Position numbers and translations under genes: made by a program. 64,000 nt of DNA from Marsupella aquatica (Eukaryota > Plantae > Marchantiophyta), in contig OZ316891.1 in the NCBI GenBank assembly GCA_973895155.1, positions 7,247,808-7,311,807 on the forward strand. The letters run 5' to 3'. Of this stretch, positions 1-48,139 are shown piece after piece. Under the pieces are notes generated by a model. It was not told the origin of the DNA. It did no database searches and worked only from the letters and a program-made list of their open reading frames with translations. Numbering within the stretch: the stretch's first letter is position 1; every line of letters begins with the position of its first letter.

Positions 1-376
1 TGCTTTAACCTGGTGAACATTGCAACGTTGAATGAATTAATGGGCCATGTGATAATATGCAAAATGATTTATGCCTCACTCATTTGTCTCAGCCACTATC
101 ATAACCTATTTAGGATGTATAAATTTCAACCCTTATGACACTGCTTCATACCAATCCTCTTCGAAGAATGCCTGTTTTACATGTCACGACTATTGTATGT
201 GATTCAAATGCATGAAATGTTGTTGCAGATCTCCTTTGGTGAATCATAGCCACAATTAAAATTGAGGTGTTGGTGGATAAATTGTATTAGGGGATCAGTT
301 TTGTGTGTGGGCTCAACATACCAAAAGTATGTGTGCTCTGCATCCTTGTGTGGCCATTCCAATTCATTGCAGTAGC

Positions 377-520
377 AAATGCCTTTGTACCTTAAATGCT
401 AAATATATTTTACTTTCTGTGCAGTCTGCTAAATTGTAGAGTCTATCTAAATGCCTTTGTACCTTAAATGCTAAATATATTTTACTTTCTATGCAGTCTG
501 CTAAATTGTAGAGTCTATCT
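377..520. repeat. 72-bp direct tandem duplication (2 copies, 1 mismatch) containing a splice-acceptor-like site
   Basis: AAATGCCTTTGTACC...GAGTCTATCT at 377-448 and 449-520. Confidence 0.95.
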
Positions 521-531
521 CATGCGCAGGC

Positions 532-1212
532 ATGGCACGGCCTAAAATTCAAGCCAAAAAGCGTGTGACAGAGGTGAGAAACACAGGTGTACTTGGGGCA
601 GATGCTACTAACTTCTCTGCAAGTCAGATTTTCCAGAAGGCAGCTCATTGTTGTGCCATTTGTGACGATGGTGGGGGCCTGGTCATTTGTGAGGGCCTTT
701 GCATGAGGCATTTCCACCTCAACCCGGAGTCTGACCTTGCTGCAGAAAACAACTGTCCAGGGGTGGGCCTCCCGTCAACACACCAGGGAGACTGGATGTG
801 CACTGATTTTTTGGAGAAGCAGGCTAAGTGTGCACAGTGTGGGAAGTTGGGGTCCTATGAGGGCTCTGTTGATGCTGCAGCAAATGTTAGGAAATGTCCA
901 GACCGTTTTTGTGTGAGATTTTTCTGTTTTGAGTGTTTGCCTGCTCATGCCACAGCTTGCCCACTTCATAGGTGCAAGGCATGTGGTGAGCATGATGATG
1001 ACTACTGGACTGACATAGTCCATTGTGCTAGGTGTCCCACTATGTGACACTATCATTGCCTGAAAGATCATCAAGCAGAGGGTTATGCTTGTGACAGAGA
1101 AATCTATGATCACTCTGCACATGGTGTTGATCGATGGATATTTTATTGTCATCGCCATGCCATTGATCCTACCTCGCGCACTCCTGTGAGAGATCACATA
1201 TCTTGGTTGTGA
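532..1212 (+). pseudogene. Stand-alone EDM2-like composite PHD/zinc-finger protein (~226 aa) with one in-frame TGA at 1045-1047
   Basis: CAICDDGG..CEGLCMRHFH..C..., C-x2-C-GKLGS, CPLHRCKAC, CARCP. Reading through the TGA gives HYHCL...IFYCHRHAIDPTSRTPVRDHISWL*, matching my recollection of the EDM2 PHD region (CAICDNGG..CEGSCLRSFH; CPLHKC; LIYCQEHEID..TPVRDH). Basic N-terminus ARPKIQAKKR. Confidence 0.8.
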
Positions 1213-1804
1213 AGCTGAACATTGTACATGCACAGTGCACCTGATGTGGATGTACTATTTTTTGAGATTGCAGAGATTCCAATTTTGAAAAGGAGTTGGG
1301 TAGGCGAGTTTATATAGGCAGCACTTATCTTGTGCTCTGGCGTCAGTGGCTGGGTACATGCCTATACAAACTTATCCTTACAAGCCTTCTTGGAAGTATT
1401 TAGGCTGAGTGGTCATTTTCATAAACACTTTCATCAGACTGCTAAATTAAAACAGGACTTCTAAGTTGTAAGCGTATAAATTATCAGGCATGCAATTAAT
1501 CAAATTGCCCTATAAGTTTGTCATTGAATGTATCCTCCTTTACAACAAAATATGTATGTGCCATGACAAGTTGGTTGCACTTCATTTCACCACGGATATG
1601 GATTTTGTAGTATATATTCAAACAATATCCTGCATCCGTGCAGGTGCCTAGTACGTATTGTTCACATATCCCTTGTACCTATTAAAATCGGACTTGAGCA
1701 CCAGTGGGCCAGATCAACTCAAAAAGCAGGAATTTTGTTGTCCTTGTATTGTCAGGTGAACCCATTCTTCCAAAATTCACTGTCATCACGTAGGGTGTGT
1801 GTAC

Positions 1805-2677
1805 ATGGAGCCTGGTAAACTTAGAAAGTGTGACCACCCAGCAGTGTTTACAGGGGTCAGAGCGATTTTGGTCCATGGCCAGCATGGGTTGACCAAAGTG
1901 CATTGGCCAACTGTACAGAAACGATTCTCTGAGCTCCATGGCACTGTAGTTCAGGACATCACTCCAGAGACTACACATGTTGTTGCAGGGACATGGCTAT
2001 CAGTGATAAAGAAGTGGTCATGGTCCTACATGAATTCTGCAATTACTAAGCAAGGCCTAAAAGTAGTTGAGGCCTCTTGGATCACAGCTTCCATAGCACA
2101 TAAGATTGTACAAGATACTGAGCAATATGAGTTGTGGGAGGATGAAGAAGCTACTGCATCAGCTTGGGCTGAACAAGAAGTCTGGGAAGCAAAGGCACGG
2201 CTTGCTGATCTCCAATATGGACCTGTACTCAACAAAGGACAGAGCTCTACAAGGCTGAAGAGTATGTTGGCTGAGGAGACGAAGCAACCAACCCCCATTC
2301 TGAAAGGGCTGAGCATGGTATTTGTGGAGGCGGGAATTGGAGAGGTTAAGTGCAAAGTGTACAAGTCCACAGTGCTTGACCTAGGTGGGACAGTGGAGGA
2401 GAATATAACAGAGGACACCACTCATGTCATTACTAAGTCATATCCCAAAGCCTGCCGCAAGTTTGGGAAGGGAGACATTCGCTTTTATGTCATGTCCCAT
2501 AATGTGTTTGTGGTTTCATATGCTTGGCTTGTGGAATCAGTAGCAGCTGGGAAGCGTCAAAACCCAATGGACTATGATCTTTTTGAGGCCTGGCCACGGA
2601 AGGGTCAGGATCCTTACAGAGAGGACTATGAGACAACAAGTGAGGAATGGGTCATTAGCGATTCTGAATCAGAGTGA
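1805..2677 (+). CDS. Tandem BRCT-domain protein (two Pol lambda-like BRCT repeats, acidic tail); reading frame intact
   Basis: Two repeats with the BRCT pattern: (F/L)xG..., GTV..., TTHV(V/I), W-x3-S (ASWITASI; YAWLVESV). ATG at 1805 follows an AG acceptor at 1793. Confidence 0.85.
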   Translation: MEPGKLRKCDHPAVFTGVRAILVHGQHGLTKVHWPTVQKRFSELHGTVVQDITPETTHVVAGTWLSVIKKWSWSYMNSAITKQGLKVVEASWITASIAHKIVQDTEQYELWEDEEATASAWAEQEVWEAKARLADLQYGPVLNKGQSSTRLKSMLAEETKQPTPILKGLSMVFVEAGIGEVKCKVYKSTVLDLGGTVEENITEDTTHVITKSYPKACRKFGKGDIRFYVMSHNVFVVSYAWLVESVAAGKRQNPMDYDLFEAWPRKGQDPYREDYETTSEEWVISDSESE

Positions 2678-3110
2678 GGAGTAGTAACATCAGTTTGGAC
2701 ACAAGTTTTTTTGTATAAATCAGATCATTGAAATAAATGTGATCTTTGAACTAATGTACCTTGTTATGGTTGGTGGCAGTTGGGCTTATTTTACTGTTGG
2801 CGGATTGTTGTTTCCTGCTGCCTAGGGGTGTCACTATAAACGTACATGCAGAGGCGGTACATTTGAGGACAGCGGAGGAGGTGGTGACACCCTCCAACAT
2901 TTAGGAATTTTGTGTCATTCACTTGACAATAGGTACACTACTTGCAAACCTGTTTTTTTCTTTTGGGGTGGTTTAGGGTTTGTGAGAATTTAGTACACGT
3001 TATGTTAACTCTTTTGGCAGATACAGTCAGGGATATATGGAACACAAATACCACCATTAGGCATCCTTGTTCACTGCTGTCCATGACTGCAGAGCTCCCA
3101 GCCTGTTACA

Positions 3111-6100
3111 ATGCACCCTGGTCACCACCCTCCCCAGACCCAGCCCAGGGCACAGGCACTGCCTTTGCATCATCCCACAAGGATATCACGCCATGATAAT
3201 AAGCTTTGGCAGCGTGAAAGGTTACGAACCAGATTTTCAGGAGCCAGTAGGATGAGATGTCCTTGTGCAATCTGCCAAGGATCCCGTACCAGGGGTCTGA
3301 ATGAGGTTTGGCGGCATATCGCGGTTCATGGAAGAGATCCACAACATCGAGTTTGGAATGATCCTGCAGAGGAAGATTCTTCCGACGAGGAGTGGAGGTT
3401 AGAATTTGATGCTGCCAATGCTGCAAGACGGGCAAGTGAGGTTCTGCCTGGTGCATTTGAAAATGTTGTAGCTGGTCTCTATGGGTTGTCAGCTCTCCAA
3501 CGGGATGGTGCTCAGGCAGCACCACGTGACGAAGGAATTCATGTGGAAGAGATGGTGAGAGACATCTTCCAAGACTTGGATGCATTTCATGATGGGCTGG
3601 ACAACGAAGAGGATACGGCTGCAGATGCAAGTGTGCCCCCTGTCGAAGAGCCTCTTGATGAGTTTGAGATAGGGCAGGAAACCCCTGGGCATGATGGGAT
3701 GTTTGGCTCTCCCCTGCAAATACAGGAAGGCAGGAAGTCTTTGTACCCCGGTAGCAAATGTTCTAAACTGGGATTTGTCATCATGTTCTTGAACATTTGC
3801 GGCAACCACAATGTCCCCAACGTTTTGGTTTCTGAGTTGTTGGCATTCTTGCGAACAACTGTGCTACCAGATAGTAATATTTTGCCCAAGAACATGTACG
3901 AGGCAAAAAGATGCATATCTAATCTTGGATTGAACTATGATTCGATCCATGCCTGTCCTGATGGGCATGTTCTTTTCAGAAAGGAGTATAAAGAATCGTT
4001 GACATGCCCTAAGTGTGGGAAGCACAGGTATCGGAACTCAGGAAAGTCTATGGTTCCCGCCAAGGTACTTCATCATTTTCCACTCATTCCCAGACTTTAG
4101 CGGATGTTCAGAAGCCGTGCCATCTCGGAGATGATGACTTGGGCAACTGACAAGAAAAGTGATGATGGGCTACAACGATATGCTACAGATTCAAGGCAAT
4201 GGAAACTCATAGATGAGATGTATCCCGAATTTGCTGCTGAGCCGAGGAATGTCAGACTTGGGCTGTCATTGGATGGGGTAAACCCATTTGGAGACAAGAA
4301 CAACAAATTTTCGTGCTGGCCTGTAACTATTTTGAATTATAACCTTCCTCCTTGGATGACTACAAAGCAATTTTTTGTTCTGATGGTCCTACTGATACCA
4401 GGGCCAGACAGTGCTGTATCTGCCAACATAGATGTGTTTCTGGCTCCCCTAGTGGAGGAATTGAGAAAGCTTTGGGAGGAAGGAGTTCTCACATATGATG
4501 TCCTACAGAGGCTTGGGAGGTTAAACCCATTCATCCTTAGAGCCATTGTCATTCTGACTATAGCTGACTACCCAGCCCATGGGATGATATCAGGCCAAAC
4601 AACAAAAGGATATTGTGCTTGTACTATCTGTGGGCGCAATGTCACCAGTGAGTACTCCAGAGCCCTGCAGAAAGTGATATACATGGGCCATCATCGTTTT
4701 CTGAAGGCAGATCACCCTTACAGAGAAAGACAGGCACTGATTGCACACTTTGGCAATGAGATTGAGCAACGTGGACCCCCGGCACGAGTGACCAAAGAGG
4801 AGATCAGGCAGTGGGGAGCACTGAGGGATGACTATATCAAACGAGGGGGCAGGGAAGATGGAGTGAGTGATCCAATAAAGCGATATGGTGTAAAAAGACT
4901 GAGCATATTGGACTTGGAGCTCAAGTACTGGAGGGTAAGCCTCTTGGAGTTGATGCTAATTGGGATACATGTTTTGGTTCAGAGCATGTGCATTCATTTC
5001 GAAGAGAGAGACTAAACTTGAGGCATTTCCTGACGCTTTTGCATTGCAACGATGCAGGAGTTTGAGCCAAGCAAACATAACATTGATGTTATGCACATTG
5101 AAAAGAATATTTGTGAGAGTCTACTCAGATTCTTGTGTGGAGAGAAAGACACTGGTTCAGTGAGATTGGATCTTGAACAGAGGGGAATGAAACCCCATCT
5201 TTGGTTGAGGCCACATGCCCACAGAGCTGATGTGCTCTTGAAGTACCAAGCGCCCTATGTTCTGACAGACACAGAGTGGGAACTATTTGTGCAGAGGTTG
5301 AGTTCTTTGAAGGTTCCTTCAAACTATGGTAGTGCTTTCAAGAAGCATATCATGACTAGAAAGCTTGGTAGTATGAAAAGCCATGACTACCATATGTTGA
5401 TGCAACAGGTGTTGCCTTTATGCCTGAGGGGCCTGTTGCAGAAGCCTGTTCGTACTGTGATCATGCGACTCAGTGATGTGTTTCGTCGTATTTGTGTGAA
5501 GGTTTGGGATGAAACACATTTCCCACAACTGACAGAAGATGTCGCTCAGGTGCTGTGTGACCTGGAGATTTATTTTCCTCCCGCATTTTTTGATGTCATG
5601 ACCCACCTACTTGTCCATGTTGTGGAAGAGCTACACCAATTTGGGCTTGTGAGTGCTCGTTGGTTGTACCCTTTGGAACGGTACATGAAGCTACTCAAAG
5701 GTCACGTGAGAACATATTACAAACCTGAAGCAAGCATGGCTAAAGGTTACATCAAGGATGAGACTCTGGGATTTCTGACCGAATACATAGCACAATATGA
5801 GCATGTGAAGACCAGGGTGTGAAATTCTGATGAGGAGGAAGGGGTGATAGGTGAAGTACTGGAAGGGGCTGCAACCACAAAGAACCTGACCATATCTATG
5901 AGAGACTTGGCACATGACTTTGTATTGCACAACACTGTGGTGATGGAACCCTGGATACAGTGAGTGCATACATGTGCTATAATCCAGTTCATGAGCTTAA
6001 ATGTTGTGTTCGTGTGGTTTTCTCCTTCAGCCTGTTCATGTTTACCCAAGCTAATGCTGTGTGGTTGTTCGTTCAGGGAGTATGAGTCATTGAAGGCGGC

Positions 6101-6842
6101 CCATCCCACTGCAGGAACAACTTTTCCAGGTTTCATGGAGTGGATCAGAGTGGCAATTAGAGAGCATCATGAGACCCACCCAGACATGGATGCAGATGTT
6201 TACCTACTGTCTAATGCCCCTAGCCTGAAAGTGAAGACTTACAAACGGATGAGAGCATATGGGAATCACTTCCGAGTGAAGGATGGTCACAGTGCCTACA
6301 GGGTGACGAATGACTGCGGGCTCATCACTGTATTTGAGCAACAGAGCCACAATCACGACAGGGCCTGGATGGAGATGGGATATGTGGGAGAATTAGTTGA
6401 CATATGGGCTCTGGACTATGGGGCGGTGTCCAGTCCTATGATTCTTATGAAAGGTTCATGGGTGCGGCAGGATTGGCTTGGTAATAGGGCTACCATGAAG
6501 AGAGACAACGACGGTTTCTTGCTGGCCAATTTCAGAGGGAAATTGCCCGAATGGTCTGAGCCATTTGTGTTTCCTAGTCAGGTGGAGCAAGCTTTCTTCC
6601 TGGATGTGGAAGACTCCCCAGGTTGGCGTGTAGTGTGTCATAAACAGGCCAGGCAACGTCGGATGGAAGGATCAAACCTTGAGTTTCATTTACACTCTCA
6701 TAGTGCCTTTGATCGTCGGTGTTCAGACCAAGTGCCTGTAGTTCATGATAGCGGGGACTTCATTCCTGTGACAAGGGTAGATGCATTTGCTGAAGGAGGC
6801 GAATTCAGAGATGCAGATGCCAACAGTGTGCCTGTGCCATGA
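3111..6842 (+). pseudogene. CACTA TnpD/Tnp2-like transposase (transposase-associated Zn motif, Transposase_21, DUF4218, DUF4216); introns 4935-5057 and 5960-6076; premature stops at 4098-4100 and 5820-5822
   Basis: IHACPDGHVLF..CPKC, PRNVRLGLSLDGVNPF, YNLPPW, DYPA, HNIDVMHIEKN, KSHDYH, FPPAFFDVMTHL, WLYPLER, EPFVFPSQVEQ. GT-AG introns restore the frame. Confidence 0.95.
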
Positions 6843-6998
6843 GTAATGTGAATTGTTTGCATGGACATTAGTGAGGGGAAGGATGTGTAATAAAGTAATT
6901 CTGAAGCAACACAGATGTATGGATGGATGCCTGGTGATTGTGGTTGCATTGTGTTATACGGGGTGACCATAGATGACATGTTTTTGTGGTCCAGTAGG

Positions 6999-9900
6999 AT
7001 GGAACAGAGTGACACAGAGATGTGTGAGTATGAAAGGAAAGCTATGGAACAACGAGCATACGTGAAAGCCAAAATCGCAGAACTGGATCTGGAAAAGGAT
7101 GTGGCTGAATTGTAAGGGAACGATTCTCAACTACACCCCTCCGCTGAGTTTGTGTGACATGAATAGTTCAATGTGGCACTGAAATTGTGACTGTATTCTC
7201 ATATTGGAATGTCGCAGAGCCACAACATTTTCAAAGAAACAAAAGGAGTACGCAAGAAGGGTGACCAGCACTATCTCTGGGCCTGTGCGTCGGAGTGACA
7301 GGTTGAGCAAGAAGGTCGTACCTACAATGGCAGAATGTGGAGATGACATTAATGCTGCACAGGTGGGTGCAGACACTAGACAAGAAGATGCAGATGATGA
7401 GTATTTTCCAGAGGAAATGGATGAGGATGGGGGTTATGAAGATGAATACATTGCAGAGCAGCCCCAAAAGAAACATGTAAGTAGTTTTCCCAACAAGGTT
7501 TTGAGTTAAAAACTCTTGTTTAGAGGTTTCATATGTTCAGTACTACACATATGTACCTTGCTTAGTTCCTGACATTGTAGTTGGTGATGTGATGCAGCGT
7601 CCTGGCAGTTCTGTTTTGCCTTCGAAGCCTGTGCATGCACCATACCAGCAGGGGGGGCTGACCTCTGATCAAGGTTGGCACTCGGGGGGGGTCACTTCCA
7701 TGGAAGTGACACATCACGTGCGACGAAGTATAGGCCCATTTAAATGGGTGTGGCGGAAGACTTCCAAAGTTTGGTGGAAGAACACATAGGGCATGTTTTA
7801 TTGATTGGTCGACTTTAAAGAACACATAGGCCTATTTAATTGCAAAAAATACTTTCTATAAAGTTTTTAGGGGTTTTTTAATAAAAAATGACAAAATTTT
7901 AAGAAAGAAAGGGCTTTGCAAAAAAATATTTTTCACTTTAAAGTTAGGGGGGTCAAACCCTAAAACGTCGCACGCGATGTATGACCCTCCATATAGTGAC
8001 CCCCCCGAGGGTTGGCAAGGTGGTAGTAGTGGTAGATCCCAGGCTGGTGCCCAATACTATGGCAGGGGGCAAGCTCTAGGTTATGCCCGTGGTAGAGGCA
8101 GAGCAGGTCCAAACCCACAATCTCGTGGGTATGGACGCCCACCTCAACCATGGGGATGTGAGTATATATCTATATGCCAGTTCTTTGTGAAGGCATGGCA
8201 CTCCTGAATTTCAGACTGCATATCAATTTTTGACATTGTTTGGGATGTATTGGATTCAGACAACATGAAATTCTGTCCACCTGCCATTGCATGCAGATTT
8301 TGCCCAACCTGATTGGGCAAATGCTAGTAATGATCAGTTCCAATGTCCACAAGGACAGACATGGGTTGAACCAGGTTGGGAGGATGGTGGTGGGTCGTGG
8401 AATGAACAAGGTTGGGAAGGTGGTGAAGGTAATTGGCAGGGATATCAAAATTCAGTACCTACAAACGCTGGAAGAGGAGCAGGTAATGTCTGATCTTGTC
8501 AGCAATGGAAGAACTCATTATATGTGGAGTCCATTCACGTGGGGGGGACTCTGCACATGTATAATGATAGAAAATGTATGTGTGCAGGTTGGACAGTCGA
8601 ACCATCGACTCAAGTATTCACTAATGCCCCTATGCAGATGCAGCACGGAAGGGGGACAGGTATGTCGGTGAATGTTCAGTTGTTTTCCTATAGTTTGTAC
8701 TTAGTTTTCAGTACATATGTTTGCACACACATACCTAGAAAGTGACATCATCCGGCCCCTGTACTAGGCTGGACAGGTGGTCCAGGGTCGCAACAATTTC
8801 AGAGTGCAGTCCCTGCACAGGCATCTATAGGCAGAGCTACAGGTATGTATGTTTGAAGAATTTTTCTTGAAGTGAAGCATTGAATGTTGCCGTCATCCAT
8901 TCTGCTATATGTAGTTCTCAAGCATGAATGGCATTGTATTTTCCCAGGTGGCTTCAGAACCCCAGGTAGGGTGAATGAAGGGGTGGCCAATACAACGCCC
9001 AGTACTACCGAGAGCAGTGCACGAGGGGAGGTGACAAAGAAAGGGAATGTAAAGTTGAATGAGAGACAATGGGTGGATGCTGAGTGTCCTCGCAAGAACC
9101 GATGGCATGCTGATTTGAAAGCTGAAGTATTGCGTTGGTTAGATGTGAGTGTTATTAATTTTAAAAAATAGCATCCAAAAGATTGGAAGACTGTATGTGA
9201 AAATGTTGCTGCCAAATGGAATTATGTGGGCAGTGATGATGGCGTGGACATAGGTTGCCTAGAGAGTACAGCAGGTAAAATTATCAAGCAAGAGAGGTGG
9301 AGAATGCATAAGGCTTGGAAGGAAGGTGGGGAGAAGCCAGATATGCCTCCACCAGCCAGTTGTGATGATAAAGTGTGGGCAAGGTTAGTAGCTTATTTTG
9401 TAACAGATGCTTCAAAAAAGAAGAGTTCACAGATGACCGAGGCCAGGTTGAGTGTTCAAAACCCTAATCTGACAGGAAGGACCGGCACTGCACCGACAGC
9501 TAAACGTTTGGTAAGAATGAATGGCCTAGCTATGTAATTTATGCTACACTATGTACTATTTTTTAGTGTAAACCCATACATGTAAACTTTGTTTTTTAGT
9601 GTACGTTCCCTGAATATTGATCGATAACTTGTGTTTGCCATGCATGTGCAGAAAGCCCAATTGGGGCAAAGCCCTTCAAAAGAAGAGTTGAGGGCTGAAA
9701 TTGTGAACACCCGGGCTCAAGGGGGTGCATCTGAATCCTCCAAGCAGTAAGTTATATGAGTTCTGATTGGTAATTGAATGACCTGCGTTGAATTTCAAGT
9801 GTACATTGTATATAACATTGATTGTGCATATATTGCCCAACATTTCATATGGAGTGATTGAACCTATACCCCTGTGTCATGTAGGGAGGTGGATCTTCAC

Positions 9901-11041
9901 TTACAGAGATAAGTGGTCGTTTGAAGGCTGTCGAAACATGTCTTCCAGAGATCAATGAACGTTTGAATTCATTGACTGACTTGTTCCATGTGAACTTCAA
10001 GACATTAATGGAAGCTGTTGTGTCGGTGAGAGATAAAATTGATTCCAATTCTGCAGGAGTTCCACCATCACCACTTGAGGTGGCAAAGTCGATGCACTCT
10101 TCTGGCATGCCAACGACATGTAGGCTTGAAGGTAAGGCCTTTACAATTGTGTGGGATATGATTATTAAATGTATAGTTTGAATTGACATTGTTTGTTGAA
10201 TGTGTTATTTTCAGTAACATATATTGTGGTTGTTGTGTCCATAGAGAATAAGATAGGTGCTACAGAGAAGAAGTATGAGAACCTGGCAAATACTCGCTGT
10301 AATTTAGAGGCAACAAAGTTGCAGTCTGTACAAGCAACTTGTTTGACAGAGGGTAGTCAACCATGTTTGGATGAGGATGACATTGGCAAGGGAGTGGATG
10401 ATATCAATGTTGGGGCAAATGAGGATATCAGCAAGCATGACAATGATACCATTGAGCCAGATTCATGCTATGTAGATCTTGACTCCATTGCAGAGATAAA
10501 TGATTTGCAGAATGTATCATTCTCAATGACAGGTGTGCCTCTTGTTGAGATAAATCCAACCAAAGAGTTAGTTGGTATGACACTCCCAGGTGATGAACCT
10601 GCTACTGTGACAGTCCTAATAGAGGAACCTACTGAGCCTAGCTTCACTACTGTGAAGAGAGGAAGCATGCGCACACGAAGCAAGTCTGCTGGTGGGAGCA
10701 GAGCCACGTCAAAGGTTTCATACAAACCTCCAAGAACAGTGCTGGCAGAAAGATCTAAGGTGGAAGTGGGGAAAGCACCTAATGCTGAGGGACAAAGTGG
10801 CTTGTTAGCTGTTGATGAGAGTGGAACACGAGTAGGATTTGCCAGAGTGCAGGTTGGTTCCACAACGTTCCATGGCAAGAGGATTCCCCCAGGTTATTCA
10901 GTAGTGTTAGTCACATTACTAGTGAAACCTAAAGCTGTCCTTCCCATTCCAAACACAAATGATGATCCTCCTCAAAAGACACTTGGAGATGCTGCAGGTT
11001 CTTTGGTATTATGGCCAAGCAAGTTCATAGAGGATCCATAA
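6999..11041 (+). pseudogene. CACTA ORF2 (TnpA-like), about 10 exons; Transposase_24-like central region and TNP1-like C-terminal domain; TAG at 9169-9171 and MITE insertion in exon 3
   Basis: Approximate GT-AG exons: 6999-7111, 7218-7476, 7598-8157 (minus MITE), 8297-8482, 8588-8659, 8768-8842, 8948-9510, 9652-9746, 9885-10131, 10245-11041. Motifs WARLVAYF..KKKSSQMTEAR..NLTGRTG and FHGKRIPPGYSVV..LPIP..TLGDAAGSLVLWP. Confidence 0.8.
7681..8009. mobile_element. 329-bp MITE with ~44-bp imperfect TIRs and an 8-bp TSD (GGTTGGCA)
   Basis: Left CTCGGGGGGGGTCACT..ACATCACGTGCGACG; right CGTCGCACGCGATGT..AGTGACCCCCCCGAG. GGTTGGCA at 7673-7680 and 8010-8017. Removing it restores the ORF2 frame (..SDQGWQGGSSG..). 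Confidence 0.92.
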
Positions 11042-11539
11042 CAATGTCATGCCATTATTTGTTTGTAGTGTGAGTCATGTTATGTAGATTTTAGATGTCA
11101 AGAAGCAGTACAAGAATCATGTCCTCTTGGAGATTCATAGTATCATGCATGTGCTTTCAGTTATCTCATCCTACAGTCATCAATTATGAGTTCCTGTTTT
11201 GTCTAAATTACATTGATCACATTGTAAACTATTCCATTGGAATTCAAATGATCTTCATTTTTTAGCAAGATTGTGATTGTGTTTAATTCTTATGAATGTT
11301 TTATGTAGGATCTGCTTATATGATGCTTTGTTTCATGTGGATGTCATTCATGCTATGTTCATTTCTTGTATTCAATGTGTTATATTTCTAAAGTTAGAAC
11401 ATCAGGTTTCTATGTATTGTAATGTCGAGTGCTCTCTCTCCTTATGAACTGTCCCTCTGTGTTCATTAGTCATGGTTATAACTTGCATGTGAACCTTATT
11501 AGTTATAAACATGAGTATATAGAGTCCCAAATGGTTCTG

Positions 11540-11896
11540 TTGTGTGACGCGGGCCAGGGTCTCCATTGGTCTCTCCTGTGACACTAAATAGTCACACGCT
11601 AGTCGTTGTTGAATGCGGGTAAGTCATGTATGTGACTTACGATGTGACTCGCTGAAGTCATATTGCAGTCACGTCGAAACAAGGCTAGACTCCACAATAA
11701 AGTCACAGATCAGTCACAAATGGGTATCAAGCAAGTTGCAAAGCCCAGTATCAATAGTGACTTCCATTTTTTGGTCTCAACTTTTGCAACTCCAAGGGTC
11801 ACAGCGTGGGTCAAGTCACGTTGAGTCACAATGAAGTCACATGAGCCAAAATGAGTCATATATTGCGGTCTCAGTTCACCTCGGATTCTTCTAGTG
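11540..11896. repeat. CACTA right subterminal repeat array (GTCAC/GTGAC, both orientations) plus TIR
   Basis: About a dozen or more (A)GTCAC/GTGAC motifs in ~330 bp, ending at TAGTG (11892-11896). Confidence 0.85.
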
Positions 11897-12460
11897 GTTG
11901 TATCCCAAATCCTTGGTAATAACACCTTTTTGCAGTTGATTTGCGCTACCTTGATCACCAACTTAGCGTACCTTTGCTTGTACGATGCCTTCTTGGGGCA
12001 AGAATACCAATAAGTCTCCAATACCTTGGCTCCTGCCTCCTCAAACAGGGTCCAAAATCCAAGAGCAGTAAGGTTCATACTAACCTTCTCTGTCCGTTGG
12101 TAGAGCTTGTCTCCCATGCCACATTCGCTCCTCCTCAGGGCAGATCCGCTATCTTCCACGAAGAGCTCCTGATCATCACCTTATATTGCACCTGACTAGA
12201 TTCCGCAACAATGCACATGATCCTTTGGTCTTCTGCAAAGAAATAATGTCGATCCTGAGTGGCAACTGAGCGTAAGCACAAACAAAAGGTGAACAGGTGA
12301 CAATGATGGCAAAGCATGAGGTAGAAATGAGCTGACAGCCATCGAAGGGTTCTTATGGTGCTCTCGGGTGTGTTCGGATGTGAGATCGTTGAGTACTTGC
12401 AGCCGCCATCTCCCAATTGAATGCGACTATATACCTTGGTCCAAGCATGATTTGCCATAA
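11897..12460 (-). pseudogene. Degenerate coding-like fragment of unknown identity, cut by the CACTA insertion
   Basis: Two overlapping minus-strand frames (12135-12458, 11710-12159) and an intron-like acceptor (..TTTTGTTTGTGCTTACGCTCAG). No family recognised. Confidence 0.3.
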
Positions 12461-12779
12461 CAAACTTTTACTCCACCGCCATCATAGTACGTACAGCGAA
12501 TGGTCATAATAGTGCGCATCTTAATCAGCACCCATTATGTGACTAACCTATTCCTAGCCTAATCATAACTGCTAAATTGTTACATGTATTGTTCCGAACT
12601 ACATGTATATAGTCCTAATGACCGTATATGTCCTAATCTACTAATTGGTCCAGGGTAAGTGACACATTGCCCGTGTCACACCTTCACACCAAAGGTGGAG
12701 CTCAAGCCCATTCCTACTGAAAGTGAACCTGTGCAGTGTATAATGAGAACTATGGGTAAAGTTGTAGCCCTTTATAGGT

Positions 12780-25589: not shown

Positions 25590-25910
25590 AGGACAATAAA
25601 AGTGTTACCAAAATATATTCTCTTTCATATTCTTTGAAGGTCAATGAAATGATAAAAACCCCATCATTTTAATAGTCATATATAATATACCATTATCCTT
25701 TCTATGCACATCCTTCTTTCTATGCACATCCTTCTTTCTATGCACATATGTGGTGGTGGGGCCATAGTGCACATTTTTTTTGAATGCGTTTCTTAGAAAT
25801 TATCACAAAAAACTTGCATGTACCAGTTTACATACATCATAGTCATGAGTTTTTCTATGCACATGATGGCCATGGAGTTACGGTCTAGAGGATTCACTCT
25901 AGACCTAGGC
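25590..25910 (-). repeat. Dispersed repeat family copy (inverted relative to 48140-48390); contains an 18-bp x2.7 tandem at 25699-25747
   Basis: CATGGAGTTACGGTCTAGAGGATTCACTCTAGA is approximately the reverse complement of TCTAGAGTGAAACCTCTAGACCTTAACTCCATG at 48152; flanks also align loosely. Confidence 0.6.
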
Positions 25911-29462: not shown

Positions 29463-31949
29463 ATGGATTCTTTGCGTTCCAGCTTGGGACGTCACTTCCA
29501 GCATTTTGTGAGGCGTGCCAACTTTCGAAAGTACCACTACGAAGCAGCTGGCCTTGAGTTAGGGGCGTGGGACAAGCTGATTTGCGAAGTGATCAGAGCC
29601 GGGCAGCTCGGGAGCCTTTCCAATTCGGAGGACAGTTCTCTGCTAAAGGATGAATTTGCAAAAGCTTTAGGGTTGTCAGGTTCAGCTGGAGAGTTTGAGG
29701 ACTTAGAGGTCGCCCCAACTGGGCCTCTAGACAGGCTTGCAAGAAGCAGGGCCAGGAAGCGGGGCTCACTTATATCCCAGTATTCGAAAGGCCGGTTAGG
29801 TTACCTTCCTAATCTTGACAGTTCGTACTTCAGTGGGGCTGGGTACCAGTGGCGATCGTCTTCAACTCTACAAGAGGCCAGCTCAGGGTCCAGGACAGGC
29901 AGTGAGGTAGAACTTGCGGTTGTGGATGTGAAGAAGTATTCTTCTGAATTGAGTGTTAGGCAATCTAGTGATTTGAGAAAACATGGACAAGAGAGTAGTT
30001 TGCATACACGCGGAGCTTTGTCGAAGAAGAAACCACCGAAAGCAATGGGCGCTGCTACAGCGGTTTGGGATATACACGCAGTGCTTAGCTCAGACTGTTG
30101 GGGACCCGCTACTGAAGATGCTCTCGGCAAATTGGGTTTGCAGTTACGGAACCACCATGTAAGTCAGGTGCTTCGGGGCCTGAAAGATTCAAAGTTGGCT
30201 TGGGAATTTTTCAAGTGGTGCAAGAAGCAAGAAGGGTACAATCACGATGCCCTGAACTACAACATGATGATTGGAATGCTAGCCGCAGATCGAGTTTCGA
30301 AGCCTGTTTTGCCTTTACTTGAGGTGATGTGTGTGGAGGGCTTTGAGGTTTATCCTAAAACTCTCGTCACGATAATTCTTAATTTTGATAAATGCGATAA
30401 GATACAGGACGTCCTGCACATCTTTAGCCAAACAGGGAGATACAAGATGCAAGTAAATGTGGGTGTCTACACCTGTCTGATTGATGTGCTTGCAAGGAGG
30501 GAAGAATACCAGCAGGTCATGAAATTCTACTCGGTTATGCAGAAGTCTAACTGGACATTAGATAATACTGCCTATAATGTGCTGATGCGGGCATTTGGCC
30601 GGGCTAAGAATGCGGGCAAGGTCTGTAGCCTTTTCCAAGAAATGAAGGAGAAAGGTTGCAGTCCTGACATGTACACATTTGGATTTCTAGTTGGTGCCCT
30701 CGCAAAGGCCGGGAGAATGGAAGAGGCTTTGCTTCACTTCAGGGAAATGGAAAAATGTGGTTTGACACCAGACGTGCCTACTTATAACATTGTTATTGAC
30801 TGCCTTGGGAAAACCGGTAAACTTGATGAAGCCTATGTGCTGCATAGAGAGATGGTGGACAGGGGACTTAAACCAGATGTGGTAACTTACAATTCTCTGT
30901 TTGATTCCCTCGGAAAGTCTGGCCAAGTAAACGATGTGCACAAGCTTTACAAGGAAATGTTGAGCAGCGGCATTTTTCCCAACGAATTTACATGTTCCAT
31001 TCTTGTTGAGGCTTTAGGTAGAGCTGGCAGATTGCAAACAGCATGTGATCTATTCCTGGATATGATGAAGACACCTGGGTTCAAAATGGACGTGATTGTG
31101 TACAACACCATGCTAAATAGGCTGAGCAAAGCAGGCCGTTTGGACCAATTACGCAGACTGTTTGGAGAAATGAAAGAAGTGGGGCAGCAACCTGATGTTT
31201 ATACGTACAACATCGTGATCGGTGCTCTCTGTGAGGGACAGGAGTTCCAGATAGGACATCAAGTGTTCATGGAAATGAAATCCGCCGGATGTCCTCCTGA
31301 TGTTGTCACCTACAACAATCTCATACATAGCTGGGGCAGGGCGGGTAAAGTTGCTCGAGCAAAGAAGCTGTTCCAACAGATGATAAGAGATGGACTTGTT
31401 CCCGATCAAATCTCTCACAACATAATGATTAATGTTCTAGGCAAGGCGCAAAAGAGTGACCAAGCATTGAAAGTTTTGAAGGATATGAAAGACAGGGGTA
31501 TGAGGCCCGATGTCGTCACTTATAACAGGCTTATCGATACTTTTGGGAAAGCAGGTGATTGCAAAGCTGCCCATTTGCTCTACACTGAAATGTTAGAGAA
31601 TGGCATTGCTCCTGATCACATCACCTTCACTGTACTGATCAACGGTCTTGCCAGAAATTATAAAGTTGATGCAGCTCGGAAAGTATATCGCGAAATGAGA
31701 GATAGGGGTCTTCGTGCTGATGTGGTCACATTCAACAGTCTTATCTGTGGATATATTAGAGAAGGTAGAATTGCGGAAGCTAATGAAATACTTATTAGGA
31801 TGAAAGCTAGTAAGGTTGAACCCTCTGCCACCACTTATGCGATACTTATTGATGGCAATGCTAGACACAACAATGATGATTTGGTATTCAAACTACGCGA
31901 GGAGAGAATAAAGGCTGGATTTTCAGCTGAATGGAGTGAGGTCATGTAA
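29463..31949 (+). CDS. P-class pentatricopeptide repeat protein, single exon, ~16 PPR motifs, no E/DYW or SMR domain
   Basis: 35-aa repeats of the type PDVVTYNxLIxxxGKAG. First in-frame ATG at 29463 (the ORF track starts at TTG 29400). Confidence 0.95.
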   Translation: MDSLRSSLGRHFQHFVRRANFRKYHYEAAGLELGAWDKLICEVIRAGQLGSLSNSEDSSLLKDEFAKALGLSGSAGEFEDLEVAPTGPLDRLARSRARKRGSLISQYSKGRLGYLPNLDSSYFSGAGYQWRSSSTLQEASSGSRTGSEVELAVVDVKKYSSELSVRQSSDLRKHGQESSLHTRGALSKKKPPKAMGAATAVWDIHAVLSSDCWGPATEDALGKLGLQLRNHHVSQVLRGLKDSKLAWEFFKWCKKQEGYNHDALNYNMMIGMLAADRVSKPVLPLLEVMCVEGFEVYPKTLVTIILNFDKCDKIQDVLHIFSQTGRYKMQVNVGVYTCLIDVLARREEYQQVMKFYSVMQKSNWTLDNTAYNVLMRAFGRAKNAGKVCSLFQEMKEKGCSPDMYTFGFLVGALAKAGRMEEALLHFREMEKCGLTPDVPTYNIVIDCLGKTGKLDEAYVLHREMVDRGLKPDVVTYNSLFDSLGKSGQVNDVHKLYKEMLSSGIFPNEFTCSILVEALGRAGRLQTACDLFLDMMKTPGFKMDVIVYNTMLNRLSKAGRLDQLRRLFGEMKEVGQQPDVYTYNIVIGALCEGQEFQIGHQVFMEMKSAGCPPDVVTYNNLIHSWGRAGKVARAKKLFQQMIRDGLVPDQISHNIMINVLGKAQKSDQALKVLKDMKDRGMRPDVVTYNRLIDTFGKAGDCKAAHLLYTEMLENGIAPDHITFTVLINGLARNYKVDAARKVYREMRDRGLRADVVTFNSLICGYIREGRIAEANEILIRMKASKVEPSATTYAILIDGNARHNNDDLVFKLREERIKAGFSAEWSEVM

Positions 31950-34123: not shown

Positions 34124-34447
34124 TGTTGAGCATAGACGACATTCGCAACGGCAAGCCCATGAACCATCCAACGCACAAGAGTCAACACAGAGAGATACGT
34201 GGTTCACCTCGACATGAGGCTACGTCCACGGGAACACACAAGAGCTTTATTGCACTCTAGGCCGACCGGCCATACCAAACATCCACAGCACAAGCTCTCC
34301 CTACATCTCAACTAGCTCCATCATAATGAGCCTAAGTTCCACCAGGGTCTGCACAATAACACTACCGCTAACATTAGCTAAGTCCTAACCCGAGTTAGAC
34401 TAACTGTGGTTAGCTCATGAGTCACAAGACTAGAGCAATATCTAACA
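34124..34447 (-). mobile_element. Copia solo LTR, same family as the 40638-47307 element, TSD CTATC
   Basis: TGTTGAGC...CTAACA, highly similar to the full element's LTRs apart from a ~20-bp deletion. CTATC at 34119-34123 and 34448-34452. Confidence 0.95.
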
Positions 34448-34516
34448 CTATCTTGACACTGCTATATTGGTGAATCCAACTTTCATGTTTTGTCTTATTC
34501 ATATTTTTGTATCATG

Positions 34517-35415
34517 TATTTTTATTTGAATTTACCTTAACATGGGGCATCCTTTGTATCATATAAACTTTTAATTCATTTTTGGACTCCTTTAATTTGT
34601 TGGTATCCTATGTTAGGTATTGCTCTTAGTCTTGTGACTCTTAAGCTAACCACAGGTAGGCTAACTCAGGTTAGGACTTAGCTAAGGTTAGCGGTAGTGC
34701 TGTTGTGTATAAAGCCAGGGTTGGGGCCAGTCCCTGGTGGATCTTCAGCTCATTGTTGGAGTGGAGCAAGAGAGAAGTAAAGGTCTCTTGTTTTCCCGTG
34801 GACGTAACCTCAGACGTGAGATGAACCACATACTCATTGTGTCGACTACCTGGTGTTCACATGTGCATGGTGTCTTGGGATAAGGATTATCCCCAACATC
34901 CTATAGTATTCTGAATTTATTTTGTCAGCCCCCTTAATTTTTTTTATTTGAATGTACCTTAACAAGGGGCATCCTTTGTATCATATAAACTTTTAATTCA
35001 TTTTTGGACCCCTTTAATTTTTTTGGTATCCTATAGTATTTTGAATTTATTTTGGCAGCCCCCTTAACTTTAAAACTTTTTTATCTCCTAGAGAGAAACC
35101 AAGGGCTTCATTTTCTACCGCTTGTAAGTATTCTCATGAATGAGAGGAATGATTCTAAGTAATGTCAACACATCCTGTCTTAAGTTCCCCTCGCGGCTTT
35201 CTTTCCTAAGTTTATGGTTTTTAAATGAGTGACTCTTGGCAGCCCCCTTAATTTTTAAACTTTGTTATCTCCTAGAGAGAAACCAAGGGTTTCATTTTCT
35301 ACCGCTTGTAAGTATTCCCATGAATGAGAGGAATGATTCTAAGTAATGTCAACACATCCTGTCTTAAGTTCCCCTCACCGCTTTCTTTCCTAAGTTTATG
35401 GTTTTTGAATGAGAG
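34517..35415. repeat. Two successive tandem duplications: a ~130-bp unit x2 (first copy split by the LTR) and a ~184-bp unit x2 at ~35053-35415
   Basis: Direct sequence comparison of the copies. Confidence 0.85.
34611..34898 (+). mobile_element. Copia solo LTR of a sister subfamily in the opposite orientation, TSD TCCTA
   Basis: TGTTAG...CCCAACA. TCCTA at 34606-34610 and 34899-34903. 5' part matches the reverse complement of the 34124 LTR. Confidence 0.9.
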
Positions 35416-40637: not shown

Positions 40638-43600
40638 TGTTGAGCATAGACGACATTCGCAACAGCAAGCCCATGAACCATCCAACGCACAATAGACGAC
40701 ACAGAGAGATACGTGGTTCACCTCCACATGAGACTACGTCCATGGGAACACACAAGAGCTTTACTGCACTCTAGGCCGACTGGCCATACCAAGCATCCAT
40801 AGCACAAGCTCTCCCTATCTCTCAACTAGCTCCGTAACAATGAGCCTAAGTTCCACCAGGGTCTGGCATCAGCCCTGGCTATATGCACAACAGCACTACC
40901 GCTAACCTTAGCTAGGTCCTAACCCGAGTTAGCCTAACTGTGGTTAGCACAAGAGTCACAAGACTAGAGCAATATCTAACAAACTCCCCCTTGACTCTTG
41001 TCTTGGGGACTGGACTAAATGCTACCATATGGAATCCTCAGCGGGAAGTTCTAGACAATCACCAAACCAGGTCTCCCCCTAAAAACCACAAGGGTTAACT
41101 AAGGGTTAACTAGAACTAAGCCGTAGCCTAACAGGAATGAGTAATCCATATACAAATAGTCACACATTGCTAAATAACTCTACTTGCACTACAATTGCAA
41201 AACCTGCAAAGTAGCACGGTGTCTTGAGAAACTCTCCAAAGGAATCACTTTGGTAAAGGCATCAGCGGGATTGAGCTTTCCATCAATCTTGACTAGCTCA
41301 AAAGTTTTATCAGACACTGCTTGCCTGATAAAATGGTATCTGATATCAATGTGCTTCACCCTGCTATCCATCACCTGGTTAGCAGCCAAGTGAAGAGCAC
41401 TCTGACTATCACAGTTTAGAGTCATTTTTCCATGCTCTAAACCCATCTCCGCGATCAACTTATCCAACCAAATTGCTTTCTTTGCTGCTTCTGCTGCTGC
41501 AACATACTCTGCTTCTGTAGTAGACTGAGATATACACTTCTGCAAGGTAGATTTCCAACTGATACATCCTCCTCCAAGAGTGTATACAAACCCAGTTGTA
41601 GACCTCCTTGTATCCAAACAGCCTCCATAGTCAGAATCTACATAGCCAACTAACGTTCTATCTGATCTGTTATCAAATAGTAATCCATAGTCCTCTGTTC
41701 CCTTCAGATACCTGAGAGTCCACTTCACAGCTTCCCAATGTACCTTCCCTGGATTTGACATGAATCTGCTAACCTTGCCCATCGTTAGGGCCAAGTCAAG
41801 CCTAGTACAAGTCATCAAATACATCAGACTGCCTACTGCCTTCTCATAAGGAATCTTAGCCATCAGACCTTTTTCCACAGCATCCGTAGGAGAGAAAGCC
41901 GATGATAACTTGAAATGTGAAGCTAAAGGAATACTCACTGGCTTACAGTTTTCCATGTTGAATCGTGCAAGTACTTTCCTCGCATACTGGCCTTGACTCA
42001 ACCACAACTGTCCAGTCTCAGAGTTCCTAAAAATCTCCATCCCTAAGATTCTCTTGGCCTTACCAAGATAATTCATCCTGAATTCAACACTCAATTTCGC
42101 CTTGAGACTGTCAACCTCAGATTGATCTTTAGCCACAATCAGCATGTCATTCACATAGATCACCAGAATGATGAAACCAAATACATCATTCTTGACTGAT
42201 TTCGTATACACACAAGGATCATACACCATCCTTGTAAAACCTTGAGCAAGCATGAAATCATCAAACCGCTTGTTCCACTGTCTGGGAGACTGCTTCAATC
42301 CATACAAGGACTTGAGCAATCTGCAAACTAAGTTCTCTTGGCCCTTCTTCATAAAGCCTAGTGGTTGTCTCATGAAGATCATCTCTTCCAAGTTGCCATA
42401 GAGAAAAGCAGTAACAACATCCATCTGATCCATCACCAGACCAAAAAACACAATAAGCTGACACAAGATCCGAATTGTGGAATACTTAGCCACCGGTGAA
42501 AAGACCTCATTGTAATCCACTCCTTTCTCCTGAGTGAATCCCTTGGCAACAAGCCTTGCCTTGTAGATCTTGTCTCCATCCTCTGAAGGACTATCCTTAA
42601 ACTTGTAAATCCACTTGCTGTCCACCACTTGTTGACCTCTTGGAAGCTCCACCAGCTCCCATGTCTTGTTGTCACTCAAAGATTGCAACTCCCTCTGCAT
42701 TGCTGCATTCCACTCATGCTTCTGCTCTGAAGCACAAGCCTCACTATACGAAGAAGGCTCTCCTTCTTCCAAGATCAAAGCCATATCATCTTTATCAAGT
42801 GCAATGTCAATATCATCTAGCTTAGATGAGTCTGCCCATTGACCATACCTGGTAGGAGCTCTAGTAGAACGACTAGAAGTTCTTCTAGTAGATGACTCAG
42901 GCTGATCTGTTGTTGCTGCTGGTTGAATTTGAGGTATCCTAGCAACAATCTGCTCCTCTTGTTCCATCATAGGAACCAGCTCCAAGCCCGGAGCTTCTCC
43001 ATCTCTCCTGTCATGAACTGCATCATGACTAATCTCCCCCTCAACCCGGTCCAGGATGGGAGATTTCCCCTTGTCAGTATGGGAGTCCTGAGAACTCTCC
43101 CCCTCCTTTGATGATCTGGATTCATTAAAGGACACATCTCTACTGACAATTAGTTTACAGGTTACTGAATCCCATAACCTATAACCCTTAACACCTTTCT
43201 GATAGCCAAGGAAAATGCACTTCTTCGACTTGGACTCTAGCTTAGATCGAAGCTGGGAAGGTGTAAGCACATAAGCATCACATCCAAAAATCCTTAGATG
43301 TGAGTAATCTATTGGACGCCCGTACCTCATTTCAAATGGCGTCTTGAATCCAATAGAACTGGATGGAAAAAAATTTACCAAATAAGCTGCAGTGTTGACA
43401 GCTTTAGCCCAAAACTCATGTGGTAAGCATGATTGACTCAACATACTCCTCGAGCGGTCCAATAGTGTTCGGTTGAGTCTCTCAGAAACACCATTCTGCT
43501 GAGTAGTATAGTTTGTTGTGAGATGGCGAGTAATCCCCTGCTCCTTACAATACATTCCAAATTCACCGGAACTGTATTCATCGCCGTTATCCGATCGAAG

Positions 43601-46600: not shown

Positions 46601-47307
46601 TTCGCAAACATCAGCAAACTAGATACCAAAACGACCAGCGCACCGCACTATCACATGCGACGCCCCGCGCACCGCACACCGCACAGCTCACACCGTTGAA
46701 GAAACGATCTCTGGTTTCTCCCCCGAAATACCGTCGAACACGAATAAACCCTGAACGACGCAAACTTCAATTCCTCCGCACCACGGATACCGATCAGCGA
46801 GCTCTAACCACCGTTAGAATGCCCTCTCACTAACCTATCCGCTCAGCCACACACAATCAAGTTTCATGCGATGAAACTCTGAATGTACCATCGACAATGA
46901 ACGCTGGAAAAACCTGTCACGAAAAAACCTCGTCACCTCCCAGGCATGCTCTGATACCACTTGTTGAGCATAGACGACATTCGCAACGGCAAGCCCATGA
47001 ACCATCCAACGCACAATAGTCGACACAGAGAGATACGTGGTTCACCTCCACATGAGGCTACGTCCACGGGAACACACACAAGAGCTTTACTGCACTCTAG
47101 GCCGATCGGCCATACCAAGCATCCACAACACAAGCTCTCCCTATCTCTCAACTAGCTCCGTAACAATGAGCCTAAGTTCCACCAGGGTCTGGCATCAGCC
47201 CTGGCTATATGCACAACAGCACTACCGCTAACCTTAGCTAGGTCCTAACCTGAGTTAGCCTAACTGTGGTTAGCACAAGAGTCACAAGACTAGAGCAATA
47301 TCTAACA
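40638..47307 (-). mobile_element. Full-length Ty1/Copia LTR retrotransposon (Tnt1/Tork-like), mutated
   Basis: 5' LTR 46962-47307 and 3' LTR 40638-40981 (9 substitutions and one 2-bp indel by eye). PBS TGGTATCAGAGC (tRNA-iMet) at 46959-46948. PPT AGGGGGAG at ~40991-40984. Flanks AAAAT/AAAAC (4/5 match). Confidence 0.97.
41189..45332 (-). pseudogene. Copia gag-pol (gag, zinc knuckle, protease, integrase, RT, RNase H) with a frameshift near 44.5-44.6 kb and stops at 44408 and 43907
   Basis: FEVEKYDG, CWNCGKPGHMKRNC, WILDSACTFH, LWHFHLGH, HSDVWGP, RSDNGDEY, YKARLVAKGF, SLYGLKQSPR, YVNDML (D->N in the RT motif), KHIDIRYHF. Confidence 0.95.
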
Positions 47308-48139
47308 AAAACAAGATAAGAATATTTATGCCCTAATGAAATGAAAAATTAGTTAATGTGTCCTGCAGGTCTGAGACAGCAACACACTCTATGACGGGGC
47401 TATAGTAGGGCCATTCGAACAGAGCTCTAATAAGCATTGCATTACATTACTTCTCTGAGTCCTTGTGTAATTCTTGTGGTAACTCAATATCTGACCCAGA
47501 GTAGAGTTACCAACCACTGCTAATTGATGGGGTTGTGACACTTGGATCTAACCTAACCAATAAAGCCCAATAGTTACTCCCGGGGCCTACTCTTTAGAGT
47601 GAAGTGTCTAGACTGTGACTCTAAGTGAGAGTGCAGACCAAAAACACAGATGGTGCAAAGATGAACAGGAAATAACATGGAACCCCTTTATCCAAGGTTT
47701 TTTTTTCTCCTCATCTCTATTTAAATACAAGGAACTGGGTACATATGAGGCTAGTTGTTTGTAGTTGTAAACTGATACCAACAACTGATAATTGATGGGT
47801 CGTGAGACTTGACCCAATCTTACTTATAAAGTGCAAACATAAGCTAAACTTGGGGTCTAGATTTCTAGAGTGCCGTTGTAGAGAGTAACTCCAGATAAAG
47901 ACAAAACAAATACAAACAAAAGTGATTGTATACAAAAATACATGGATGGAGACAAAGATGAAAGGGATCAACATAGATTCATTTGCAAGACTTTTTTTTG
48001 TTGGTTAATCTAGATCTATTGATATTCAAAGAATCTGCATTTCAGGCTCATTGCTTCTGATTGTAAAGCCCCTTCATGATGACAGGGACCCAAAATGCCC
48101 AAAATCTTATTTAAAAAGCACCTACTATAAATTAGAGTT

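Follow-up and report, generated by a model that had tools for sequence, protein, structure and literature searches.

A young CACTA transposon family appears to carry an EDM2-type PHD-cluster gene and a double-BRCT gene as conserved accessory genes

Do the two genes that lie ahead of the transposase at the left end of a 64,000-nucleotide stretch of contig OZ316891.1 (hereafter the window, meaning the whole stretch analysed) belong to the transposon itself, and what could they do for it? We show that positions 1-11896 of the window are a single copy, with slight decay, from a CACTA family that is young and multi-copy; this family appears to be of autonomous type and to have two conserved accessory genes, one for a stand-alone EDM2-type PHD cluster and one for a double-BRCT protein. 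That the BRCT gene is fixed cargo of this family we hold with high confidence, and that the PHD gene is so with confidence only slightly lower. On the plus strand the order is PHD gene, double-BRCT gene, TnpD transposase and TnpA-like gene, followed by subterminal repeats and the right terminal inverted repeat (TIR); open reading frames (ORFs), Pfam matches and the TIR match bear out this arrangement, which a first-pass annotation of the same DNA had described. The features are as follows.

1..531, plus strand: non-coding 5' stretch of the element (deeply covered from position 1 onwards in sequencing runs X1, X2, X4, X5 and X6, with contigs crossing the window start)
532..1212, plus strand: single-exon gene of 226 codons for a stand-alone PHD cluster of EDM2 type (Pfam, same-length homologues, profile search)
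532..561, plus strand: H3-tail-like N-terminus of the PHD protein (five of the nine residues after Met equal H3 1-9, including the K4 and K9 positions)
1805..2677, plus strand: double-BRCT gene, 290 amino acids, open frame, single exon (Pfam, homologues P0001 and P0002)
3111..6842, plus strand: TnpD transposase (Pfam, GT-AG splice search, motif positions; start codon uncertain)
7200..11041, plus strand: TnpA-like multi-exon gene (weak PF03004 match, candidate exons; limits approximate, exon chain partly resolved)
11544..11840, no strand: subterminal array of 13 GTCAC-core motifs (GTCAC/GTGAC) in both orientations
11881..11896, minus strand: right TIR, starting CACTA (sole exact match of the TIR 16-mer, with a depth drop beyond it)
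11897..11899, plus strand: candidate 3-bp target-site duplication GTT (read from the sequence only; left counterpart beyond the window)

The element has several features characteristic of CACTA / En-Spm transposons, namely a CACTA terminus at its right end, a TnpD gene, a subterminal array and a multi-copy repeat that stops at the TIR. TnpD matches PF02992 (E 4.5e-69) and PF13960 (E 2.5e-26), with weak matches to PF13963 and PF13952, and so contains the Transposase_21 and DUF4218/DUF4216 domains of this group; its acidic motifs were located, and we take these to be catalytic. The predicted GT-AG exon model (3111-4934, 5058-5959, 6077-6842) contains two internal stops. The TnpA-like gene is recognized by PF03004 alone, at E 5.5e-5 and 2.8e-4, both weak and under the curated cut-off. 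In 400-bp bins across the window, the densest in GTCAC-core motifs holds 10 and the runner-up 4, and the only other match of the TIR 16-mer has three mismatches, which is chance level. From bin 11701-12150 to bin 12151-12600, read depth drops from values in the thousands to that of the flank, so that the repeat edge is resolved to the bin only. The left end of the element and its TIR lie upstream of window position 1. Scans of 1-3300 at 16 nt with four mismatches, 12 nt with two and 10 nt with one detected nothing TIR-like, and only two GTCAC/GTGAC motifs (2830 and 2884) occur between the BRCT stop and TnpD; the earlier claim that neither a left TIR nor a GTCAC array separates the first two genes from the transposase therefore stands, and a left TIR between the PHD gene and TnpD is ruled out. 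Strand and GC skew are likewise unbroken over 1-11000.

The evidence that these genes travel with the transposase comes from sequencing runs. The stretch is present in nine runs from seven studies, at least half of its words occurring in five of these runs, and the contigs of eight were compared, with summed bin depths left out as copy numbers. In X1, single contigs have depths of 1641 (1266-1814, from the spacer to the BRCT start), 1799 (BRCT) and 1554, 1782 and 1775 (TnpD), while flank contigs lie at 24.2 and 24.3, which makes the spacer, BRCT and TnpD parts of the element 64- to 74-fold deeper. In X2, two element contigs at 4166 and 3058 stand 115- and 85-fold above a flank of 36. In X6, a contig of depth 186 and about 95% identity spans 1923-3177, that is, from inside the BRCT gene to inside TnpD, and TnpD and TnpA contigs of the same run lie at 168-207, matching this bridging contig; since the bridge occurs at TnpD/TnpA depth, the BRCT gene is bound to the transposase in a second, diverged subfamily. 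The tie of the PHD gene to the element comes from the window sequence itself and from depth. These run depths rule out single-copy host status for either gene. Co-occurrence with the transposase, as proposed by the first-pass annotation, is thus borne out for the BRCT gene by depth and by the X6 bridge, and for the PHD gene by depth and the window, yet the PHD region is about twice as deep as BRCT and TnpD in X1. Near-identical pieces at depth 3-20 in X7-X9, where the stretch has small shares, were not used as evidence, nor was the high summed depth of these three runs on conserved TnpD parts and, in X7, also on the PHD gene.

The same runs indicate how far the window copy has departed from its family. 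The dominant X1 contigs differ from it at 12 of 2569 bases. Four stops are private to the window copy, at 1045-1047 in the PHD gene, 4098-4100 and 5820-5822 in TnpD, and 9169-9171 in the TnpA-like gene; the majority letters are open at 1047, 4098 and 5822 in all four runs considered (X1, X2, X4 and X5), and at 9169 in X1, X2, X4 and half of the X5 depth. A conserved Cys codon at 809, lost in the window copy, is also present in the majority letters. The point-stop lesions that had been noticed in both the PHD gene and the transposase are therefore private decay of this copy, and a PHD stop as a family trait is ruled out. Collectively, these data establish that the family spread recently and that it numbers dozens of copies, nearly identical to one another and intact in their majority letters. 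To characterize the decay, we used 36 of the 40 differences shown, from a total of 920, dropping three where the X1 majority equals the window and one outside the element, and keeping one, at 2048, that is the majority in X5 only. Among differences of the C-to-T type, 21 of 31 fall in CG or CHG contexts, where 26% would be expected (p 1e-6), an excess that is the mark of a methylated copy and indicates that the host methylates the element.

The PHD gene runs from an ATG at 532 to a TGA at 1210-1212; in the window copy the premature TGA at 1045-1047 replaces a conserved Trp, and the lost Cys is that of codon 93. Its protein has three NSD-type PHD matches in Pfam, every one under the curated cut-off. 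Five homologues of the same length (P0003-P0007; 217-245 amino acids, 36-81% identity) were found in sequencing-run assemblies, and several short relatives are truncated or frameshifted. Across the six full-length proteins, 23 of the 38 Cys/His positions and 24 of the 159 other residues are invariant (47 of 197 positions in all). A profile of six short proteins matched 530 cluster representatives, with E-values down to 1e-30 for long proteins in which the PHD cluster accompanies an RFD domain; these long proteins rank beneath the short relatives, and many are matched near residues 220-430. A DNMT1-RFD domain lies ahead of this PHD cluster in 13 of the 41 proteins scanned, a layout that we take to be that of EDM2, the matches themselves being nameless. 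Viral contigs gave no matches. The proposal of an EDM2-like PHD module is thus supported by the profile matches, and the cluster reads as the atypical composite PHD cluster of EDM2 type. The 226-residue ORF has PHD matches only, with neither the RFD nor the C-terminal methyltransferase-like (ELP) domain, so that the gene appears to be an EDM2-derived or EDM2-like module and not a full member of the EDM2 family. A predicted model of the protein (pLDDT 69) matches PZP and NSD PHD clusters, which read histone H3, six of them at E under 0.001, with low TM-scores of 0.2-0.3.

In a quick tree, 12 short PHD proteins form one group (SH-aLRT 98, stem 1.5) whose sister group did not resolve. Among the long relatives, P0017 begins Met-Ala-Arg and ends straight after the PHD cluster, and proteins of this kind are a possible candidate donor type for the short gene. 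P0017, P0030, P0034 and P0069 are long or medium-length EDM2-like proteins that stop 3-4 residues past the last motif of the cluster. A metagenome scan with the PHD alignment returned one locus, L001, of 1867 bp. At 529-1200 this locus has a distant short PHD gene (44%) with an in-frame stop of its own at 592-594 and a C-terminal end at the same residue.

A feature of the PHD protein missed by the first-pass annotation is the likeness of its N-terminus to the tail of histone H3. In ten N-termini, which we selected by eye where the starts coincide, the residues that correspond to H3 R2 and K4 are R and K without exception. When their profile was compared with 177,635 PDB sequences at E-values up to 10, the single match was histone H3 residues 1-10, a weak one (E 1.8). 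In a partly different set of ten starts, whose sequences are kin, the mean H3-motif score was 15.8, compared with 1.0 +/- 1.8 in 20000 shuffles. The K4 and K9 lysines are absent from the long relatives that start Met-Ala-Arg. We regard a true H3 mimic as possible, with the chances somewhat against it.

The BRCT protein starts at 1805, stops at 2677 and has two PF00533 stretches (E 8.8e-13) and an acidic tail; its two domains are mutually related (24% identical between halves, E 3e-11) and are separated by about 50 residues. Homologues P0001 and P0002, both from sequencing-run assemblies, are 59 and 54% identical over 99-100% of the length and have 294-295 amino acids. The first-pass annotation had called the protein Pol lambda-like. 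We set this aside as an established label, given that human Pol lambda BRCT (2jw5) ranks 38th of 39 PDB sequences with an E-value of 0.84, below Rtt107, ligase 4 and BRCA1, which are themselves all weak; an Atlas search returned generic BRCT clusters, all under 0.9; and no longer homologue occurs among 7990 candidates, which is weak evidence. The 290-residue ORF has BRCT matches only and no Pol X catalytic domain, in line with the length of the homologues. Since the ranking was made with the human protein in a comparison that included no plant Pol lambda, the label is unproven rather than refuted. A metagenome scan with the BRCT alignment gave 172 pattern matches, none confirmed, and the AlphaFold model (pLDDT 33) is too low to use. 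BRCT domains usually serve repair, and this is the sole ground on which we tentatively suggest that the protein acts as an adaptor to host break repair, the weakest step of our proposal. Engagement of non-homologous end joining (NHEJ), as the first-pass annotation suggested, gains no support from any of the tests and, like the evasion of silencing, is an inference.

How could such genes serve the element? It is likely that the PHD accessory is a chromatin-docking, counter-silencing protein. The minimal EDM2-type protein would dock where copies of its own element lie silenced, on the tails of histone H3, and, because it has lost the RFD and methyltransferase-like parts of EDM2, could only bind. 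It might therefore behave as a competitor or tether on chromatin carrying H3 dimethylated at lysine 9 (H3K9me2), diverting host silencing factors and weakening silencing, while TnpA would work alongside it by binding the subterminal motifs. The H3-like tail, in which the K4 and K9 positions are kept, could act on the host's writers or readers of H3 as a decoy or as a docking peptide, and the BRCT pair would link the DNA breaks of cut-and-paste transposition to host repair. Expression is also conceivable from a single left-end promoter by alternative splicing into AG sites before the PHD, BRCT and TnpD starts, judging from a reading of the sequence; a splice-acceptor-like AG at 528-529 lies two bases ahead of the PHD ATG, and a 72-bp tandem duplication at 377-520 (copies 99% alike) doubles the splice-acceptor-like tract upstream of this gene. 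Taken as a whole, with the PHD protein docking on H3 tails and weakening silencing, the H3-like tail aiding it and the BRCT pair linking breaks to repair, this reading seems to us evenly balanced between being right and wrong; its most specific form, in which an H3-tail reader cut down from an EDM2-type factor is also a K4/K9 decoy and is accompanied by a BRCT recruiter of repair to excision and insertion breaks, is doubtful.

Several points weigh against this proposal. The window copy is both methylated and decayed, so that counter-silencing, if it occurs, does not work fully. The H3 match has an E-value of 1.8, two of the ten short proteins score 0 and 2 on the H3 motif, 6 of 116 long relatives reach 12-17 on it at their N-terminus, and Met-Ala starts followed by a basic nuclear signal could yield part of the likeness. 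Selection on the distant homologues among P0001-P0159 need not have acted inside a transposon, and the six flank ORFs of L001, which has short flanks, contain no transposon domain. The quick tree used 60 rows of 142 eligible (of 156) and has flagged long branches. With respect to multiplicity, contig depth reflects copy number only roughly, and X1 or X4 is possibly the window's own source, X2, X5 and X6 being from other studies. In addition, no contig among those listed crosses the 54 bases that follow the PHD stop, up to 1266, and in X1 the PHD region has about twice the BRCT/TnpD depth (2775-3878 at positions 698, 809 and 1175, compared with 1641 at 1627).

Of the alternatives, the one that survives best, unlikely as we consider it, is that the PHD protein is a target-site tether, directing insertion by the transpososome into a particular state of chromatin and leaving silencing unaffected. 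Chromodomains steer some retrotransposon integrases to chromatin in this manner, a reader without an effector domain fits such a role, and the single insertion observed sits in a mixed region of genes and transposons. However, the PHD protein is separate from TnpD and not fused to it, and the H3-like tail would be superfluous.

A second alternative, which we consider improbable, is that two host fragments were captured as passive Pack-type cargo and amplified with a young family to which they render no service. Gene capture by CACTA elements is well known (PMC13317346), a burst at 0.5% divergence keeps any cargo intact-looking, and several short relatives are truncated or frameshifted. Nevertheless, homologues down to 36% (PHD) and 54% (BRCT) identity retain start, end, length and zinc ligands. 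Over 192 codons, the window PHD gene and that of L001 have a pN of 0.42 and a pS of 0.78 (non-synonymous and synonymous differences, respectively, the latter saturated), while 47 of 197 positions are invariant across the short proteins. Moreover, the short proteins are a group of their own with a long stem, and are not nested by one donor. The same-length homologues and the saturated synonymous sites against the distant PHD copy argue that both genes were kept for long and are not Pack-CACTA debris. Random fragments decaying neutrally would lack the conserved limits and ligands that appear here, and Pack-CACTA elements would lack a transposase, whereas TnpD is present, with majority letters open at both of its stops. 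In this sense, the conserved starts and ends among homologues agree with the first-pass description of both genes as precise, stand-alone modules.

Equally improbable in our judgement is that the PHD gene is part of a second repeat, neighbouring or nested, or of a non-autonomous partner; for the BRCT gene this is less likely still. The doubled PHD depth in X1 means that some PHD copies sit in another structure, and the left TIR, being beyond the window, was not seen. Also cited in favour is a second structure at high depth in X1 and X6. This structure matches 1-1263, 6236-6598 and 7672-8010, i.e. the region of the PHD gene and some of that of TnpA; it covers just short bits of the 3' part of TnpD, with loose ends at 6236, 6285, 6549 and 6598, and represents a sister subfamily or else a non-autonomous derivative in which the PHD gene was retained. 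On the other hand, there is no terminus-like sequence in 1-3300, the spacer from 1266 onwards is at TnpD-level depth, the BRCT-TnpD bridge occurs in a diverged subfamily, and neither strand nor GC skew shows a break between 1 and 11000, all of which speak for one element.

No better placed are the ideas that the element spreads mini-EDM2 regulators of benefit to the host, or that likeness to an essential host gene camouflages it: some long relatives, such as P0017, likewise stop directly behind the cluster and have a Met-Ala-Arg start, so that short forms are not foreign to hosts, and captured genes have been proposed as 'camouflage' (PMC13317346), but protein identity of about 30% to the long relatives is too low for shared small RNAs and dozens of near-identical copies are more readily expected of a gene of the element than of one of the host.

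Several known systems bear parallels with the proposed counter-silencing element, as described in the portions of the cited work drawn on here. Like En/Spm and the elements with the Arabidopsis KAKUSEI TnpA, it has a CACTA terminus, a subterminal array, TnpD and a TnpA-like gene, and it differs by two further genes upstream of TnpD. TnpA binds clustered terminal motifs and hypomethylates Spm ends (bioRxiv 10.64898/2026.08.24.746577), and anti-silencing by a CACTA protein is therefore already known; the main text of that source, apart from its supplements, in which accessory domains of 962 Spm proteins may be listed and which fell outside our search, does not mention PHD, BRCT or EDM2. The same source describes TnpA-like proteins as apparently confined to flowering plants, a restriction on which the weak PF03004 gene at 7200-11041 would bear if the host is not a flowering plant. 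A ULP1 domain has been captured by CACTA and Mutator-like (MULE) elements, including Kaonashi, with a function that is unsettled (PMC2528002, PMC13317346); the likeness lies in a host-derived domain long kept in autonomous DNA transposons, while the present cargo consists of two distinct genes, one for a histone-reader cluster and one for a BRCT pair. VANC, the anti-silencing factor of the Mutator-like VANDAL elements, is also encoded by an accessory gene of its own within a plant DNA transposon, with escape from silencing as the proposed gain, but it recognizes DNA motifs (PMC6446971, PMC13317346), whereas the PHD cluster is predicted to read histone tails, and by description the two are set apart. 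Fungal EnSpm and other DNA transposons encode TET/JBP (PMC12730594), which is similarly an epigenetic accessory gene within EnSpm termini, although a fungal methylcytosine enzyme rather than a non-catalytic plant reader.

EDM2 itself combines a methyltransferase-like domain with 2.5 PHD repeats of an atypical kind (PMC7529245, PMC9910501, PMC3632883), binds H3K9me2 and promotes full-length transcripts through heterochromatin (PMC7529245, PMC9910501). The PHD protein shares with Arabidopsis EDM2 the atypical composite cluster and the same C-terminal motif, at about 30% identity to the long relatives, and differs in having 226 residues instead of about 1300, in having no RFD or ELP domain, in being multi-copy and transposon-borne, and in its H3-like N-terminus. 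Rehavkus, a Mutator-related animal element, also has a PHD finger in a DNA transposon, inside the transposase (PMC6446971), and thus differs by class, host and placement of the finger. Enlarged En/Spm elements of Chondrus with 4-5 ORFs (PMC6431247) are another case of CACTA elements with extra ORFs. Finally, viral histone mimics (PMC11738798) are, likewise, short H3-like motifs in proteins of selfish elements, and the difference is that here the weakly supported motif belongs to a DNA transposon and is coupled with an H3-reader fold.

In the parts of PMC11982613 and PMC10241880 consulted, no such cargo is described, and a full-text literature search, whose scope ended short of subscription journals and Repbase, retrieved no CACTA element with a PHD-cluster or BRCT gene. 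The first-pass suggestion that the combination is undescribed thus holds for this cargo in the literature searched, and not for accessory genes and anti-silencing in CACTA elements, which are already known (TnpA, ULP1, fungal TET/JBP); what is new is the cargo only. In this respect, the transposon anti-silencing factors in the cited work (VANC, TnpA, TET/JBP) act on DNA, and a conserved, transposon-borne histone reader derived from the EDM2 pathway would, if true, be a counter-measure at the histone layer. Similarly, the H3-like tail, if real, would extend histone mimicry from viruses to DNA transposons. Even if the function is targeting, a CACTA element with two long-selected accessory genes would be undescribed in the literature searched. 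Given that the family is young and that the PHD and BRCT genes are small and single-exon, direct peptide-binding, trans-activation and jumping assays are within reach.

The rest of the window contains several other features. An LTR (long terminal repeat) retrotransposon of Copia type occupies 40638-47309 on the minus strand; its polyprotein is broken and its terminal repeats agree at 98% over 236 nt, and LTR pieces related to it lie at 34124-34757. On the plus strand, 57977-63857 is an element resembling a long interspersed nuclear element, with a 446-residue frame followed by endonuclease and reverse-transcriptase-like frames, labels given by reading the translation; one stop, at 60531-60533, parts these last two. 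An intact single-frame PPR gene lies at 29466-31949 (PF13041, E 1.8e-139); together with the types of element present, it suggests that the host is a land plant. Inverted-arm pairs at 25598-25903 (34 nt, 94%) and 48152-48385 (35 nt, 77%), about 22 kb apart, are perhaps two opposite copies of a small repeat, and a 352-residue Arg/Ser-rich frame at 49043-50101, with no Pfam match, is probably part of a host gene.

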